A DNA stretch of 51,230 nucleotides, taken from an uncultured bacterium (lineage in GTDB: Bacteria; Hydrogenedentota; Hydrogenedentia; Hydrogenedentales; JAEUWI01). A program made the translations under genes and the position numbers. The stretch covers positions 1 through 51,230 of the forward strand of contig CAXBPH010000006.1 in NCBI GenBank assembly GCA_963977445.1, read 5' to 3'. Shown here piece by piece: positions 182 through 48,316 of this stretch (positions are counted from its first letter, which is position 1; every line of letters begins with the position of its first letter). The notes under the pieces are model-generated. The model did not search any database, was not told the origin of the DNA, and saw nothing but the letters and a program-made list of their open reading frames with translations.

Positions 182-410
182 GGGGACTGCACCGACGTAG
201 TGTGTGTCTATTTTGCGAGGCTTACCTCGTGGTTGGTAGGCGACATTTGTTTTGCGAGGTATGCTTAGACAGTCGGGGCCGTCCCCCCGAGGGTGATCGC
301 ACTCAGGGGGAACAGCCCCGACCAGCAACGTCCTCCAGCCTACCCGCGAGGTCTCCGGCACCAAAACATCATTACCCTACCACCAGATGCATCAGGTCGG
401 TGCAGTCCCC
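182..410. repeat. MITE/REP-like element with 15-bp terminal inverted repeats
   Basis: GGGGACTGCACCGAC (182-196) and GTCGGTGCAGTCCCC (396-410); internal inverted arms GTCGGGGCCGTCCCC and GGGGAACAGCCCCGAC. Confidence 0.85.
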
Positions 411-533
411 GGGGATTCCTCGGCGATGTATTCGTATAGATGGGGCCAGTTTATTGACCTTTTTCCTTTCCCTCGCGTATCATGAGCGCCCGCGAATACC
501 CACCCGATTTTCCGATTACTGGAGGAAAGACCA

Positions 534-7333: not shown

Positions 7334-7511
7334 AAAAAAAGAAACGCCATAACAATGGGACTCGTCATGGCGCCACTCTAGGAGGTTCACGTTTTACAAC
7401 TCAGGTAGAAAGCGCTGGGACGGCACCTTCAACCATTCAATTGTTGTAACCCGCGTAAGTTTTGACTTCCGTGTCATTCTGTCGCTTCAACATCCTTGTT
7501 TCAGCCTCGTA
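7334..7511 (-). ncRNA. Putative sigma28-dependent sRNA (copy 4 of a family); ends approximate
   Basis: Follows a sigma28 promoter; hairpins AAC-AAGGAT-GTT and TGAC-ACGGAA-GTCA (identical to copy 1); UCCC-loop hairpin; AACCTCCT anti-SD; terminator CGCCAT..ATGGCG plus T-tract. Confidence 0.7.
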
Positions 7512-7517
7512 CTAAAT

Positions 7518-7544
7518 GTATCGGCACCTCGGTGGAAAGCTTTA
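7518..7544 (-). promoter_or_regulatory. Sigma28 (FliA)-type promoter
   Basis: Minus strand reads TAAA-gctttccaccgaggt(15 nt)-GCCGATAC. Confidence 0.8.
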
Positions 7545-42240: not shown

Positions 42241-42418
42241 GGGCTTTCTATGGTGTTTAGATCAAAAAGTTTCTGGGCCCATACACGCCCTGCCGACCCA
42301 AATCTGATGCTACCTGAGTATTTTATCGACGGCAATGGTGGATTGCTGAACAACCCGCAGCAGTATGACCGGTAATCCTATTTCGAAACAAACGCGCCGC
42401 ATTAACAGGAGAAAAATA

Positions 42419-43012
42419 ATGAGTGACTATAAACCGAGTATCCTTGCCTTCGCCGGGAGCACACGCACCAACTCACTAAATAAAAAACTCGCCCGTGCGG
42501 CCGCTGCCGGTGCCGAAGCGGCGGGGGCCTCCGCAACCTTCATCGATCTCAGAGACTATCCCCTGCCACTCTTTGATGAAGATCTGGAACGTGAAGAAGG
42601 TCTACCAGAAAACGCGGTCAAGTTACGCGAACTTTTTCTCCAGCATGATGGGCTGATTATCGCATCACCTGAATACAATGGGTCAATCAGCGCCGTATTA
42701 AAAAATACGATCGATTGGCTCAGTCGTCGTCAAGGAGACGAGGCACCCCAAATCTGCTTTAAAGAAAAGGTCGCCCTCTTACTTGCAGCGTCACCAAGTG
42801 GACTCGGCGGACTTCGGGGACTGCGGCATCTTACTACCCTGCTCCATGGTATTCAGGTCATCGTGCTACCAGAGCAAAAGGCCATTCCTGCGGCCCATAC
42901 ACTATTCGATGACTCCGGTATCGCCGATGAAAAATTGAAGGGTGATGTGGAACGACTCAGTGCGCGTCTTGTAGAAATGACAACGCGTATCCACGGAAAA
43001 CAAACACGCTAA
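42419..43012 (+). CDS. NADPH-dependent FMN reductase (ChrR/SsuE-like)
   Basis: GSTRTNSLN, SPEYNGSISAVLKNTIDWLSR. Confidence 0.92.
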   Translation: MSDYKPSILAFAGSTRTNSLNKKLARAAAAGAEAAGASATFIDLRDYPLPLFDEDLEREEGLPENAVKLRELFLQHDGLIIASPEYNGSISAVLKNTIDWLSRRQGDEAPQICFKEKVALLLAASPSGLGGLRGLRHLTTLLHGIQVIVLPEQKAIPAAHTLFDDSGIADEKLKGDVERLSARLVEMTTRIHGKQTR

Positions 43013-43036
43013 AGTCCCTGCGCCCTGTGCCGATAA
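43010..43036 (+). promoter_or_regulatory. Sigma28 (FliA)-type promoter 1
   Basis: TAAA-gtccctgcgccctgt(15)-GCCGATAA; the -35 box overlaps the upstream stop codon. Confidence 0.85.
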
Positions 43037-43042
43037 GTACTA

Positions 43043-43225
43043 GCAGAGGCCAAGACACGGAGGTCGAGGCGACAAAGTGACACGGAAGTCAACGGAGGAG
43101 GCGGTAGAGGCTAGATAACTCGTCGGGTGTCATCCCCAACACCAACGCGATCGACGTTTTGTCCCATAGTCTTTCCATCCATGAGAGGCGCCATAGCAAC
43201 TTTGTTGTGGCGTTTTTCTCTTTTT
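43043..43225 (+). ncRNA. Putative sigma28-dependent sRNA copy 1 (~180 nt); ends approximate
   Basis: GAC-ACGGAG-GTC and TGAC-ACGGAA-GTCA hairpins, GGTGT-catcccca-ACACC, tract complementary to flagellin-2 RBS/start, terminator 43188-43225. Confidence 0.75.
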
Positions 43226-43303
43226 ATCGCCACCCGCCAATCCAACGCGCCCCCACCCTGAAACCGCACAATTCATGTCTCCGACATAATTTTGTCTTCT
43301 GAC

Positions 43304-43330
43304 TAAAGTATCCCGGCGGGTTGCCGATAC
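43304..43330 (+). promoter_or_regulatory. Sigma28 (FliA)-type promoter 2
   Basis: TAAA-gtatcccggcgggtt(15)-GCCGATAC. Confidence 0.82.
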
Positions 43331-43336
43331 ATTCAG

Positions 43337-43505
43337 TACAAGGCGGCGACACGGAGGTCAACGCCAGCGCGACATGGATGTCATCTGCTACATAGCCTGG
43401 TTTCAAACTCACAGGGTGGTCAATCCCACCGCCTGCTATTGCGAGTTTCCCCAGGGCCTTACCTCCGAAGCGCGTTGCAGCCCTGTTGCAACGCGTTTCG
43501 AATTT
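43337..43505 (+). ncRNA. Putative sigma28-dependent sRNA copy 2 (~165-185 nt); ends approximate
   Basis: GAC-ACGGAG-GTC and GAC-ATGGAT-GTC hairpins, GGTGG-tcaatc-CCACC, CTTACCTCC anti-SD, hairpin 43467-43499. Confidence 0.72.
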
Positions 43506-43522
43506 CCCCGAAACTTTTTTTC

Positions 43523-43549
43523 TAAAGTCTTCCCCACACCCGCCGATAA
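43523..43549 (+). promoter_or_regulatory. Sigma28 (FliA)-type promoter 3
   Basis: TAAA-gtcttccccacaccc(15)-GCCGATAA. Confidence 0.85.
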
Positions 43550-43555
43550 GACCCC

Positions 43556-43688
43556 TATATAGAGTCAGAATTGGCACGTACCCGTACGAGAACTGGGGTG
43601 TCTATCCCAACACCTTAACCAGTCGCTAATCTCTGCTTCTTATCTCCTCGATTGCGCCATGACCTCGGTCATTGGCGCATTCTTTTTT
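43556..43688 (+). ncRNA. Putative sigma28-dependent sRNA copy 3 (~130 nt, no GGA hairpins); ends approximate
   Basis: GGTGT-ctatccca-ACACC hairpin, TATCTCCT anti-SD, terminator TGCGCCATGACC/GGTCATTGGCGCA plus T-tract. Confidence 0.68.
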
Positions 43689-43956
43689 GGGGACTGCACC
43701 GGCCGAATGGATGCCACTGAAGCCTCGTTGAACACGTGGTAAACGGGCGTCGTCCTGCATGAAACAACGATGGCGACCGCCGGGGCCGTCCCCCTGAGGG
43801 AAATCACACGCTGGCAGGCGTCATACCCCCTAAGGGGAAATGGCACTCTGGGGGAAACAGCCCCGACTGTCTTCTCGTCCTGCCCTGCGGTGCCAACATA
43901 AGCCAACCACGGGGTTTGTGGCGCTGGGTGATAATGGCCACGTCGGTGCAGTCCCC
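43689..43956. repeat. MITE/REP-like element, same family as 30646-30908
   Basis: GGGGACTGCACCGGC and GTCGGTGCAGTCCCC ends with the same internal arms. Confidence 0.85.
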
Positions 43957-43968
43957 AGCACCCCCGTA

Positions 43969-44748
43969 TCACTCAAGCCCTTCCGGTAGTCCGTAGAGCA
44001 CTTCTTTCATCACCAGACCCTGTGGCGGGGCGCAATGGCCCACAAAGGGCCCCCCGGAGGCCAGCGCTTCGCCGATAAATTCCGGGCCGAATCGACCCCG
44101 ACCTATCTCGATCAGGGTGCCAGACAGGTTTCTCACCATCTTATAGAGAAAGCCATTGCCAAAAAACTCGATATGCCACAGATTTTTGGAATCTATCGGC
44201 CCCACGACACCGCCCCGGTGAAATTTCACCGAATAGAGGGTCCGCACCGTCGTTTTCATCTGACAACCCGTGCTCTGGAAGCCCGCAAAGTCATGGGTGC
44301 CTTCTAATTGGGGCAACAGCGACTCGATCAGGTCCAAATCTACGGCATAGGGTACCTGCCACGTATAGGGCGCGCTGAAGGGGTCCATTTCCCGGCTGAA
44401 GTTAAAGGTATAGCAATACCGCTTCGCTTTGGCCGAAAAACGGGCGTTGAACTCCGAATCGACCGGTGCCAGATGACAAATCTGGATTTCCGGCTCCAGC
44501 ATCCGCGATAGGGCGTGGCTGAGCTGCGGTGGCACCTCCGGCCGGGGCCATTCACAGGAAAAGACCTGTCCCAGGGCGTGTACCCCCGCATCCGTGCGCC
44601 CGGCGCCCTGAATTCGCACGGGCTCCGAGGCGATACGGCTCAGGGCCGCTTCAATTTCCCCCTGGACGGTTCGGCGGTCGTCCTGGATCTGCCAGCCGGA
44701 GAAATTTGTGCCGAGATAGCGCACTATACCTTTGAGAGTGTGAGACAT
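43969..44748 (-). CDS. truA: tRNA pseudouridine(38-40) synthase
   Basis: YLGTNFSGWQ, GAGRTDAGVHALGQ, FNARFSA, GNGFLYKMVR. Confidence 0.95.
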   Translation of the reverse strand: MSHTLKGIVRYLGTNFSGWQIQDDRRTVQGEIEAALSRIASEPVRIQGAGRTDAGVHALGQVFSCEWPRPEVPPQLSHALSRMLEPEIQICHLAPVDSEFNARFSAKAKRYCYTFNFSREMDPFSAPYTWQVPYAVDLDLIESLLPQLEGTHDFAGFQSTGCQMKTTVRTLYSVKFHRGGVVGPIDSKNLWHIEFFGNGFLYKMVRNLSGTLIEIGRGRFGPEFIGEALASGGPFVGHCAPPQGLVMKEVLYGLPEGLE

Positions 44749-44930: not shown

Positions 44931-44957
44931 TAAAGTTCGGGCTAAAGTTGCCGATAA
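44931..44957 (+). promoter_or_regulatory. Sigma28 (FliA)-type promoter of the flagellin locus
   Basis: TAAA-gttcgggctaaagtt(15)-GCCGATAA upstream of flagellin 1. Confidence 0.88.
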
Positions 44958-44963
44958 ATACTG

Positions 44964-45410
44964 CAGGTAAGCCGAAACAGGACTTATTCACTGAAAAATT
45001 GAAGCGAATACGTGAGACCCAGGGACGGGTCTCTGCAACATCATGGAGGATGGCGCAACAGCGCGGGCTAAGCACCCGCATGACGGCCTCGTGGCCCGAC
45101 TATGACAATTGAATCATGTTGATCGAAAACTTCGGTTTTTGGCAAGGAAAGACGGCAGGATGCCTGAGAACCTTGCCACAAGGAAACGCCGTGGTGACCA
45201 CAATGCAACCGGGCACGGGACATGCCCCACCGCAGCAGGGTTATCACCGCATCAATACAATGGGACCAATCGGCACCATGTAGGAGCCGATTTCTGAGAC
45301 AGCCACTCATGGGACGAAGGGCTTCCGCACAAGCGGGAGCCATTCAAGGGGGGTTGCCTCGGAGGTAGCGCAAGGACGCGCTATACCAACCACTCACGGA
45401 GGAATACATC
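44964..45410 (+). promoter_or_regulatory. Long GGA-rich 5' leader with candidate CsrA sites
   Basis: About 16 GGA by manual count, several in hairpin loops (GAGACCC-AGGGAC-GGGTCTC; TAGCGC-AAGGAC-GCGCTA). Confidence 0.6.
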
Positions 45411-46226: not shown

Positions 46227-46458
46227 TCATACCGTCTCTAACCAGGGCGGCCGGACCTCAACGGATTTGAGGGGCCGGAAACGGAATTACCAGCCATCGG
46301 CTGCCCTGGTCAATTTATAAACGTAGTCGAAAGGAGGACCTGAGACAATGGATGAACGGCGAGTCGCGTCGCCCGCAATCTGAAGAATGTCTACATCACG
46401 GAAGAATTAGTTACAGAGGGATCGGGAATCTCTCTGGCCACTCATGGAGGATAATACT

Positions 46459-47277
46459 ATGGGACTTCGAATTAATACCAACGTAGCGTCGCTTAACACG
46501 GCGCGTACTCTGCAACGGTCTACCAATTCACTTAACAAATCTCTGGAACGTCTTTCCAGTGGTCTCCGGATTAACCGTGCTGCCGATGATGCGGCCGGTC
46601 TGGCGATTGCGGAAGGCTTTCGTTCCGTTGTCCGTGGCTCTCAAGTCGCTCAGCGAAATGCACAGGATGGCGTAAGCCTGGTGCAGACCGCTGAAGGGGC
46701 GCTGAGTGAAACCACCAACATCCTGCAACGTATCCGCGAGCTGTCTGTACAGTCGGCGAACGGAACGCAGAGCACCACCAACCGGGCCGCTCTGAACAAC
46801 GAAGTAAACCAGCTGCTGCAGCAGATCGACGACATCGCCTTTGACACCGAATTCAATGGTGTCGCGGTGTTGAGTTCCAGCAGCACGCTGACACTCCAGA
46901 CCGGTGCCTACACCGGCCAGACCCTTCAAATTGCTGTCGTCAGTGGTGCCAGTCAAGGTGCTATCGGCGTAAGCACGGTGAATATCTCCACGGCGGCCGG
47001 CGCGGTAAGTGCCCTCAGCCAGGTCGATACCGCACTCCAGCGGGTAAACACCCTCCGCAGCAATCTGGGTGCCCTTCAGAACCGCCTCGAATTTACGATT
47101 AATACGTTGGCGATTCAGGAAGAAAACTCGGCTGCTTCGGAAAGCGCCATCCGCGATGCGGATATCGCCCGCGAGACCATTCAGTTCACGCGTAACCAGA
47201 TCCTGGTGAGCGCGGGTACGTCGGTTCTGGCCCAATCCAATATCGTTCCTCAGACGGCACTCCAGCTTCTCGGTTAA
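46459..47277 (+). CDS. fliC: Flagellin 2
   Basis: Same flagellin N/C motifs; GGAGG RBS before ATG 46459. Confidence 0.95.
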   Translation: MGLRINTNVASLNTARTLQRSTNSLNKSLERLSSGLRINRAADDAAGLAIAEGFRSVVRGSQVAQRNAQDGVSLVQTAEGALSETTNILQRIRELSVQSANGTQSTTNRAALNNEVNQLLQQIDDIAFDTEFNGVAVLSSSSTLTLQTGAYTGQTLQIAVVSGASQGAIGVSTVNISTAAGAVSALSQVDTALQRVNTLRSNLGALQNRLEFTINTLAIQEENSAASESAIRDADIARETIQFTRNQILVSAGTSVLAQSNIVPQTALQLLG

Positions 47278-47349: not shown

Positions 47350-47497
47350 CCCCGAAATCATTCAGAAAGGAGATTCAAACCACGTGGTTCCATCGTCGTC
47401 GCGCCCAATAGGGCAAGGCGGATGTATAGGCACCACATGAGAAGTACACACCCGATTGGTTAGGGATACCTGATTGGGTGATCTTGGAGGTAAGATC

Positions 47498-48316
47498 ATG
47501 GGATTACGAATAAACACAAACGTCCCGGCTCTCAATACGAGCCGGGCGCTTGATCGTTCTACGCGCGAATTGAATCGCAGCCTGGAACGATTGAGCAGCG
47601 GCCTGCGCATCAATCGCGCCGCCGATGATGCGGCAGGCTTGGCCATTGCCGAAGGCTTCCGCACACAGGTGCGGGGTGCGCAGGTGGCACAGCGGAATGC
47701 GCAGGATGGCATCAGTCTCGTTCAGACCGCAGAAGGTGCGCTCAGCGAGACCACCAATATCCTGCAGCGCGTTCGAGAGCTTGCCCTGCAGTCTGCAAAT
47801 GGAACGCAAAGCTCTGCCAACCGCGCCGCGCTGAACACCGAGGTGCAGCAGCTGATCGCACAAGTCGAAGACATCGCCCTGGATACCAGTTTCAACGGCA
47901 TCAGTGTGCTCAGTAGCAACCAATCCATTACGCTGCAGACCGGTGCATACACCAGCCAGACCCTGCAGGTCAGTATTGGCGGAGCCCGCTCCACCGACCT
48001 GCGTATCAGCGCCATCAACGTCTCGGCGGTTACGGGTGCCACCTCGGCCATCAGCGCCATTGACGTTGCTTTGGCAAGCGTTAACACACTCCGAAGCAAT
48101 CTGGGTGCCTTTCAGAATCGGCTGGAGTTCACCGTGAACACCCTCGCCATTCAGGAGGAGAACGCCGCAGCCGCAGAGAGTTCCATTCGCGATGCCGATA
48201 TTGCCCGGGAAACCATTAAATTCACCCGAAACCAGATTCTGGTTAATGCCGGGGTTTCCGTGTTGGCCCAAAGCAATGTGACGCCCCAGGCCGCGTTGAG
48301 CTTGTTGAGTACCTGA
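47498..48316 (+). CDS. fliC: Flagellin 3
   Basis: Same flagellin N/C motifs; GGAGGT RBS before ATG 47498. Confidence 0.95.
   Translation: MGLRINTNVPALNTSRALDRSTRELNRSLERLSSGLRINRAADDAAGLAIAEGFRTQVRGAQVAQRNAQDGISLVQTAEGALSETTNILQRVRELALQSANGTQSSANRAALNTEVQQLIAQVEDIALDTSFNGISVLSSNQSITLQTGAYTSQTLQVSIGGARSTDLRISAINVSAVTGATSAISAIDVALASVNTLRSNLGAFQNRLEFTVNTLAIQEENAAAAESSIRDADIARETIKFTRNQILVNAGVSVLAQSNVTPQAALSLLST

Follow-up and report, generated by a model that had tools for sequence, protein, structure and literature searches.

In Campylobacter jejuni, the leader of the flaA flagellin mRNA carries two adjacent ANGGA hexaloops, is repressed by CsrA and itself titrates CsrA, in an organism for which the cited text reports FliW and no Csr/Rsm small RNAs (PMC4894983). 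In Vibrio cholerae, the small RNA (sRNA) FlaX pairs with the flaB flagellin mRNA, prevents 30S binding and alters the composition of the filament (PMC11879080). Here we describe an array of three predicted sRNA units, with a fourth copy 36 kb away, that lies close to flagellin genes in a 51,230-nt contig (GenBank CAXBPH010000006.1, assembly GCA_963977445.1; hereafter the window) of an uncultured bacterium of the phylum Hydrogenedentota. We lean towards the view that these units specify late-class flagellar sRNAs, in which the 3′ half would be antisense to particular flagellin mRNAs and the 5′ half would serve as a handle for CsrA.

Several other described RNAs share part of this design. In McaS and GadY of Escherichia coli, a single RNA contains both a region for base pairing and two or more GGA motifs to which CsrA binds with high affinity (PMC7652899). 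In Bacillus subtilis, a CsrA of the FliW-associated type binds both the sRNA SR1 and its target ahrC and promotes their pairing, a precedent for a matchmaker role (PMC6546359). UhpU, MotR, FliX and FlgO of E. coli, which depend on sigma-28, and FlmE/FlmR of C. jejuni are sRNAs within the flagellar hierarchy that tune flagellar synthesis; the E. coli members derive from untranslated regions (UTRs), and the cited texts describe tandem CsrA hairpins on none of these RNAs (PMC10578931, PMC11187230). GGA motifs in hairpin loops are also the hallmark of CsrB, CsrC and RsmX/Y/Z, with 13-22 GGA sites in CsrB/CsrC (PMC6546359) against 2-3 in the present units. In the cited texts, CsrA-binding regulatory RNAs are described for Gammaproteobacteria, and bacteria with FliW-controlled CsrA are described as being without canonical CsrA-antagonising sRNAs (PMC4894983, PMC7652899).

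The units of the window differ from each of these systems. FlaX is released from the flaA 3′ UTR and acts together with ProQ (PMC11879080), whereas the present genes stand on their own, in a genome where ProQ was not found, and encode CsrA-type hairpins. In C. jejuni the decoy is the mRNA leader itself, whereas here a similar module sits on separate non-coding RNAs together with an antisense part. Unlike McaS, the units have a FliA-type promoter and predicted flagellin mRNA targets, in a genome where no Hfq was found and where CsrA is of the FliW-controlled kind; SR1 lies outside the flagellar system and is built differently, and both of these RNAs were compared by description only. McaS depends on Hfq and is not known to be a flagellar class-3 gene, and the sigma-28-dependent sRNAs of E. 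coli are Hfq-dependent too. The promoters of CsrB, CsrC and the Rsm RNAs are controlled by GacA/UvrY, whereas those found here are FliA-type. Each ingredient is known elsewhere. Neither the family itself nor a single free-standing RNA of sigma-28 type that unites them in an organism with FliW and CsrA was found described in Rfam or in the literature, the latter surveyed mostly through titles and abstracts. No literature on Hydrogenedentes with CsrA was found, and among the papers listed for Hydrogenedentes with flagella none was on RNA by its title.

Should this view hold, the units would represent a free-standing RNA partner of FliW-type CsrA, wired to sigma-28 and aimed at flagellin mRNAs, that extends one of the most widespread flagellar checkpoints by a layer of RNA control and gives cells with several flagellins a means to dose each one. 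They also provide this uncultured phylum with a first regulatory RNA family, for which a covariance model is ready for annotation.

Four predicted FliA-type units in the window

The window is contig C6 of a 7.1-Mb genome (G000; 464 contigs, 56% G+C, 94% complete); related genomes, contigs and fetched loci are designated below by G, C and L numbers. The array occupies 43010-43688 on the plus strand, between an FMN-reductase gene (42365-43012), whose stop codon is overlapped by the TAAA of the first promoter, and a convergent truA gene beyond which lie three flagellin genes, fla1-3. The fourth unit, on the minus strand (7544-7334), is convergent with a histidine-phosphatase gene. Because these neighbours are convergent and no same-strand gene comes next, units 1-4 are not leaders of downstream genes.

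An earlier model-made reading of the window, which we call the sequence-only reading, had noted three TAAA-N15-GCCGATA promoters in the array that match the one before the flagellins. The count bears this out: TAAA-N14-16-GCCGATA occurs five times in the window against 0.03 expected, a number reached in 0 of 100 shuffles, at 43010, 43304, 43523 and 44931 on the plus strand and at 7544-7519 on the minus strand. The whole genome holds only 21 matches, two of which precede the flagellin genes fla1 (44931) and fla4 (C24:26566), so that the units carry the same promoter type, TAAA-N15-GCCGATAA, as late flagellar genes of this genome. A fliA gene is present (profile match of 260.6 bits, above the cut-off). 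These patterns point to units 1-4 as FliA (sigma-28)-type transcription units, their transcription and its dependence on FliA being predictions from sequence.

Each promoter had been said to be followed by 130-185 nt and a terminator-like hairpin. Counted from about 7 nt past the -10 element to the T run, the predicted transcripts measure ~184, 160-184, 133 and 178 nt for units 1-4; terminator-like hairpins with T runs lie at 43183-43218 and 43495-43514, and units 3 and 4 fold into similar hairpins, with ends close to 43688 and 7334. The modular layout proposed for the units was likewise recovered: all four have a GGUG..UCCC..CACC hairpin, then a CU-rich tract, then the terminator, and units 1 and 2 begin with GAC-ANGGAN-GTC hairpins (starting at 43054 and 43079, and at 43348 and 43371), whereas unit 3 has none. 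The fourth homologue, which the sequence-only reading had placed at 7334-7544, has its own promoter and the GGA hairpins AACAAGGATGTT and GACACGGAAGTC. The features are as follows; bits refer to the covariance model R1 of the family, and ranks to the comparison with candidate start regions of the genome, both treated below.

43010..43035, plus strand: FliA-type promoter of unit 1, from the pattern match
43043..43228, plus strand: predicted sRNA unit 1 (type 1), ~184 nt, ends approximate; R1 141 bits, fold, orthologues in relatives
43054..43065, plus strand: hairpin 1 of unit 1, GAC-ACGGAG-GUC inside a GCC/GGC helix; loop unpaired probability 0.98
43079..43090, plus strand: hairpin 2 of unit 1, GAC-ACGGAA-GUC
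43092-43101, plus strand: third GGA tract of unit 1, ACGGAGGAGG, directly after hairpin 2
43126..43143, plus strand: central hairpin of unit 1, GGUGU/ACACC; its loop, which contains UCCC, is conserved, and columns 121-125/136-140 of the alignment covary
43161..43189, plus strand: predicted antisense tract of unit 1 against -22 to +7 of the flagellin 2 mRNA; rank 1 (energy) and 2 (ungapped) of 7991
43183..43228, plus strand: predicted intrinsic terminator of unit 1, 16-bp stem and T run
43304..43329, plus strand: FliA-type promoter of unit 2, from the pattern match
43337..43520, plus strand: predicted sRNA unit 2 (type 2); R1 118 bits
43348-43359 and 43371-43382, plus strand: GGA hairpins of unit 2, followed by its central hairpin (~43413-43435) and a double 3′ hairpin
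43450..43468, plus strand: predicted antisense tract of unit 2, CCCAGGGCCUUACCUCCGA, against -14 to +5 of the flagellin 3 mRNA; rank 30 of 7991
43523..43548, plus strand: FliA-type promoter of unit 3, from the pattern match
43556..43688, plus strand: predicted sRNA unit 3, short form without GGA hairpins; R1 41 bits (E 7e-9), fold z-score -4.5
43597-43614 and 43653-43688, plus strand: central hairpin and terminator of unit 3
43638..43647, plus strand: candidate seed of unit 3, UCUUAUCUCC, against GGAGGUAAGA at the flagellin 3 Shine-Dalgarno sequence (SD); rank 378 of 7991, unpaired probability 0.64
7519..7544, minus strand: FliA-type promoter of unit 4, from the pattern match
7334..7511, minus strand: predicted sRNA unit 4, with two GGA hairpins, central hairpin and terminator; R1 97 bits
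7385-7373, minus strand: CU-rich tract of unit 4, CCUCCUAGAGUGG

The interval had been described as free of credible open reading frames (ORFs), and those that it contains are short, overlap on both strands and cross the unit borders; Pfam gave no match for a 110-aa frame at 43640-43972. Rfam did not recognise the architecture, which the sequence-only reading could not assign to a described family either: there was no match at gathering score across the whole window, and with E values allowed up to 10 the stretch 42900-43800 returned chance-level matches only (E 3.9-9.2), none of them Csr/Rsm-related. BLAST within the genome itself returned the known unit copies only.

A conserved RNA family with covarying helices

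The proposal of a paralogous sRNA family fared well beyond this genome. Of 41 related genomes, 30 gave BLAST matches to the interval. Within the genus, seven of the other eight genomes preserve the array with each of its three units, G004 being the exception with two units at its fetched locus (L015). Orthologues of unit 3 occur in L012-L019, L021 and L023, and unit 4 has orthologues in all eight.

Beyond the phylum we relied on an exact-pattern scan for the two-hairpin module in one genome for each of 185,579 species. Full layout (promoter, two hairpins, central hairpin, CU tract, terminator) was found at 45 of the 49 loci returned; the other four (L037, L060, L064 and L066) are coding repeats in other phyla and were rejected as family members. 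Relatives found in this way are labelled Candidatus Hydrogenedentota, apart from ten full-layout loci labelled Nitrospirales or Nitrospiraceae (L031, L032, L038, L040, L048, L050, L051, L065, L070 and L075) and two further ones, L054 and L057, without a Hydrogenedentota label. The Nitrospirales/Nitrospiraceae labels probably conflict with genome taxonomy. L065 is identical in promoter and 5′ module to G031, a genome placed in the window's own order, and the scan therefore offers no good evidence for the family outside Hydrogenedentota.

Among 61 distinct units with a detectable terminator (six further units have none detectable), 57 have a FliA-type promoter, and at least two of the other four show one-base variants of the -10 element. 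Of the 61, 52 entered the alignment, after exclusion of four units whose 3′ ends were doubtful and five from the genus that were near-identical copies. Four helices emerged from RNAalifold and from counting pairs, namely GCC/GGC around hairpin 1, hairpin 2, the five-pair central hairpin and the 14-pair terminator, with compensatory changes in 19 of 28 pairs. Paired cells amounted to 92.4%, against 84.4% in shuffled alignments and 30-48% with the partners slid, and none of 500 shuffles matched the observed values. Covariation is strong in two helices, the central hairpin (for instance UA 19 against CG 17 at one pair) and the terminator, while the GGA hairpins show extreme conservation of primary sequence. 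Inspected by eye, the alignment has indels in its variable middle and invariant runs without a three-base pattern.

R1 gives an E value of 7e-9 for the weakest copy in this genome, the short unit 3. Across the phylum, it finds the RNA in 101 of 135 genomes (69 of the 86 of high quality) and in 53 of 66 genera, mostly in 2-5 copies each. On this conservation, the units are members of a non-coding RNA family present in most of the flagellated Hydrogenedentota searched. A fifth match in the genome (C4:62604-62774, 22.9 bits) consists of the 3′ end of a 532-aa ORF and a terminator, and was rejected. An enlarged unit occurs in L034 (DAIPKA010000018.1, ~190-460, minus strand), in which one promoter is followed by four GAC-ACGGAN-GUC hairpins and two hairpins with an AUCCC loop, a more sponge-like arrangement.

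Distribution follows flagella

In the same 135 genomes, Flagellin_N was detected in 109 and CsrA in 104. Flagellin_N is present in 100 of the 101 RNA-positive genomes, the exception (G077) having one weak RNA match, and the RNA occurs in one of the 26 genomes without flagellin. In family f11, flagellin is confined to genus g24 (2 of 23 genomes), and the RNA is found in exactly those two. Nine flagellin-positive genomes gave no RNA match, including both genomes from other orders of the phylum (G041 and G042). As related genomes are not independent, this co-occurrence is to be read as a consistent pattern and not as a statistic.

A 5′ module resembling the CsrA sites of flagellin leaders

Units 1, 2 and 4 start with GCC-RA-GAC-ANGGAG-GUC-RA-GGC, a short spacer and GAC-ACGGAN-GUC. 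For CsrA, SELEX gave the consensus RUACARGGAUGU, with ACA and GGA invariant and GU nearly so; the loop of a site mostly has six nucleotides closed by AC and GU, on stems of at most four pairs, and two sites separated by 10-63 nt can be occupied by a single dimer (PMC7652899). Hairpins of the GAC-ACGGAU-GUC type follow them with ACA, GGA, GU, an AC/GU-closed hexaloop and a short stem, the one departure being that many members have C before GGA instead of the purine of the consensus. The GGA-to-GGA distances in units 1 and 2 (25 and 23 nt) fall within the published range, and the GGA loops have predicted unpaired probabilities of 0.74-0.99. In the 52 aligned sequences, which come from many genera, the A, CA and GGA of the hexaloops and their flanking AC/GU are invariant or nearly so. 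The identification of these hairpins as CsrA-type sites in the sequence-only reading agrees with both the site rules and the two-site spacing.

The genome also encodes the expected proteins: besides fliA, both csrA and fliW were found, adjacent and with overlapping reading frames. The PDB chains closest to this 73-aa CsrA are 1t3o and 5dmb, which we take to be Bacillus CsrA and a CsrA-FliW complex. Hfq (PF17209) and ProQ (PF04352) gave no match in the 94%-complete genome, which leaves CsrA as the obvious protein partner.

The same kind of site marks the presumed targets. All four flagellin leaders have an upstream GGA-loop hairpin and CAYGGAGGA over the SD (GGAGGUAAG in flagellin 3). This two-site layout is conserved in ten relatives and is the one described for flagellin genes under CsrA control. 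Hairpin 1 of the RNAs, as in unit 1, resembles the SD site of the leaders, and hairpin 2 their upstream GGA-loop hairpin.

45350-45410, 46395-46458 and 47400-47497 in the window, and C24:26600-26680: flagellin leaders with two CsrA-type sites

The sequence-only reading had combined these hairpins with base pairing in a dual function, of which the antisense part and the CsrA-type hairpins stand and the word "sponge" is doubtful. A sponge in the sense of CsrB or the Rsm RNAs is unlikely, because units 1, 2 and 4 have 2-3 GGA sites per RNA, unit 3 has none in its hairpin loops and no Csr/Rsm model matches.

We also considered a kissing pair between the loop of hairpin 2 and the central AUCCC loop, and rejected it: in the alignment, inspected by eye, the base after GGA varies and the loop base before UCC stays A.

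A 3′ module complementary to flagellin start regions

Pairing with individual flagellar mRNAs had been suggested in general terms, and the comparison below narrows it to the start regions of flagellins. We compared the units with 7991 candidate start regions of the genome, each an ATG or GTG that opens an ORF of at least 100 codons and has an SD-like word 4-11 nt ahead of it. Folding whole RNAs against 85-nt leaders with duplexfold produced long, meaningless interior-loop structures, and this procedure was replaced by tract-only and ungapped scoring.

46437..46465, plus strand: predicted target of unit 1, the flagellin 2 start region, SD with CAUGGAGGA, start codon at 46459
47484..47502, plus strand: predicted target of units 2 and 3, the flagellin 3 start region GGAGGUAAGAUCAUGGG, start codon at 47498

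For the 31-nt tract of unit 1 before its terminator, flagellin 2 had the best duplex energy of all the start regions. Scored ungapped over the RNA body, this pair came second, with 43161-43189 covering the SD and start codon of flagellin 2. To judge by these ranks, the complementarity of unit 1 to the flagellin 2 start is beyond chance. The match of unit 2 to flagellin 3 (ungapped) is weaker. Over 10 nt, unit 3 matches the flagellin 3 SD (in relatives its seed has the perfect form UCUUACCUCC), and unit 4 has a 13-nt interrupted match (rank 1043 of 7991) to CCACUCAYGGAGG of flagellins 1 and 2. In units 2-4, a 6-9-nt core of the CCUCC type (ACCUCC or UCUCC) is predicted to be exposed as a single strand.

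Flagellin loci were fetched from ten relatives, and the type-1 tract is present in G000 and nine of these, with none detected in G017. In nine of the resulting ten genomes, it fits the flagellin-2-type start best, with scores of 32-42 against at most 28 for the other flagellins of the same genome; the tenth, G010, has no flagellin-2-type start among its three start regions. Flagellin-3-type starts are fitted best by type-2 units in six genomes and by short-form units in three (G003, G007 and G005). Independently, the first BLAST had matched G023 and G031 on the strand antisense to flagellin genes, immediately upstream of them (90% over 29 nt). Two compensatory changes were noted: in G011 the RNA has GAGAAGCG opposite CGCUUCUC in the mRNA, and at the flagellin-3 site RNA G faces mRNA C in G004 and G008 where RNA A faces mRNA U in G025.

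In unit 4 and its orthologues in L049, L068 and L075, the terminator loop (7334-7372, minus strand) keeps UCCCAU, the complement of the flagellin start AUGGGA. This word lies 3′ of the anti-SD tract and therefore would not pair colinearly together with it; it may make a loop contact.

Interpretation

In the scheme towards which we lean, FliA would switch on the three separate sRNA genes and the fourth copy as part of the late flagellar class. The 3′ half of each RNA would pair with the ribosome-binding site and start codon of one flagellin paralogue, unit 1 with flagellin 2 and units 2 and 3 with flagellin 3, and by blocking the ribosome would set the dose of each flagellin once the late genes are on. 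The two 5′ hexaloops, spaced for one CsrA dimer, would copy the two CsrA-type sites of every flagellin leader, and this handle would tie the RNA to the flagellin-FliW-CsrA checkpoint. Either CsrA would help the RNA to find its mRNA, as a matchmaker, or the RNA would keep CsrA off the flagellin leaders. For in-vitro work, the model of sRNA, CsrA and flagellin makes sharp predictions.

Several observations weigh against this scheme. The binding of CsrA to the 5′ hexaloops is proposed from motif fit, and the GAC-ANGGAN-GUC motif is not enriched genome-wide, with 21 copies (five of them in these RNAs) against 5-28 for control stems. Covariation lends no support to the GGA hairpins because they almost never vary, and csrA travels with the flagellar genes, so that genome distribution cannot separate a link to CsrA from a link to flagella. 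On the antisense side, the matches of units 3 and 4 are short and no more than generic anti-SD pairing, while the long tract of unit 1 is largely buried in its own stem (mean unpaired probability 0.23). Cognate RNA-mRNA pairs average 36.4 against 34.9 for non-cognate ones, and the cognate pair scores highest in its row in no more than 2 of 10 genomes, a test that does not discriminate because both partners are too conserved. The sequencing runs include no RNA run among those listed, and one DNA run with a small share of the words. Finally, it would be an unusual logic for an RNA to be co-produced with its target, to repress it and yet to be able to free it from CsrA.

A more specific form of the scheme, in which CsrA would act as the sRNA matchmaker of a flagellar system where neither Hfq nor ProQ was found, is on balance doubtful. 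One half of a CsrA dimer would sit on the tandem hexaloops of the sRNA and the other on the upstream GGA hairpin of the flagellin leader, delivering the paralogue-specific antisense strand onto the ribosome-binding site, and FliW, freed at flagellin export, would dissolve the whole complex. If so, the ancient flagellin-FliW-CsrA checkpoint would decide which flagellin is made, and not just how much, through late-class guide RNAs.

The RNAs might instead be pure CsrA decoys, that is, non-coding copies of a flagellin leader folded on their own antisense strand that bind CsrA when the late genes fire, with the complementarity to flagellins a by-product of mimicry or of an origin by inverted duplication. 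Their two CANGGANG-type hexaloops are as in the C. jejuni flaA leader, which titrates CsrA (PMC4894983), the unit with four GGA hairpins in L034 would suit such a role, and the strand with which the unit 1 tract is predicted to pair internally resembles a flagellin start region. We nevertheless consider this explanation unlikely: unit 3 and its orthologues keep the 3′ half with no GGA hairpin, the cores of units 2-4 are predicted to be open, one dimer per RNA gives little capacity, and a generic decoy needs no such fit as that of the type-1 tract, which is much better on one flagellin paralogue in nine of ten genomes.

It is more unlikely still that the units are pure base-pairing sRNAs whose 3′ half represses flagellin translation and whose 5′ hairpins are structural, stabilising or bound by a partner other than CsrA. 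The complementarity results themselves accord with this, the short form apparently manages without hairpins, and FlaX of V. cholerae is a precedent for a base-pairing sRNA acting on a flagellin mRNA (PMC11879080). Near-invariance of the ANGGAN loop and its flanking AC/GU in 52 sequences, however, goes far beyond structural need, the loops fit the CsrA consensus position by position, and the flagellin leaders are marked by the same motif.

That the units are not functional RNAs at all (stray promoter- and terminator-like DNA, coding micro-genes or leaders of neighbouring genes), as the short ORFs of the interval and the lack of a listed RNA run might suggest, is very improbable in view of phylum-wide conservation with covarying helices, indels in the variable middle of the alignment, invariant runs that show no triplet periodicity by eye, ORFs that span unit borders and no same-strand gene downstream.

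Other features of the flagellin leaders and the locus

The fla1 leader is unusually long, ~450 nt from its FliA-type promoter (44957-45410). Two more GGA hexaloop hairpins lie at its 5′ end (45014-45033 and 45034-45057), with a compensatory stem change in L012, and its blocks are kept in G005 and G008. A weak terminator-like hairpin is seen near 45124-45142, and pseudo-start motifs ATGGGAC at 45260 and 45309 resemble the flagellin start that is complementary to unit 1; ATGGGAC is not enriched across the window (12 against 8.7 expected). The blocks of this leader could serve as additional sites for CsrA and as decoys for sRNAs, or could belong to a fifth small RNA with read-through beyond it.

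44931..45057, plus strand: FliA-type promoter of fla1 and first part of its leader, with the two GGA hexaloop hairpins

Before flagellins 2 and 3, no clear sigma-28 or sigma-54 promoter was seen by eye in the genus alignment. Conserved blocks occur 80-150 nt upstream of both (46330-46375 and 47355-47375), with GAAAGGAG and, before flagellin 2, also CGAGTCGCGTCG.

Between the terminator of unit 3 and the stop codon of truA lie ~280 nt of non-coding DNA (43689-43968), G+C-rich and with repeated words like CCCCCU-AGGGGAAAU; the sole Rfam match there is Guanidine-II at chance level (E 3.9). This stretch may be the truA 3′ UTR.

On another contig (C76:27380-27450), a FliA-type promoter is followed by a GGAC-AAGGAG-GUCC hairpin over the SD of a small cysteine-rich ORF that starts MTVQCCVCKK, a further candidate for a CsrA-controlled late gene.

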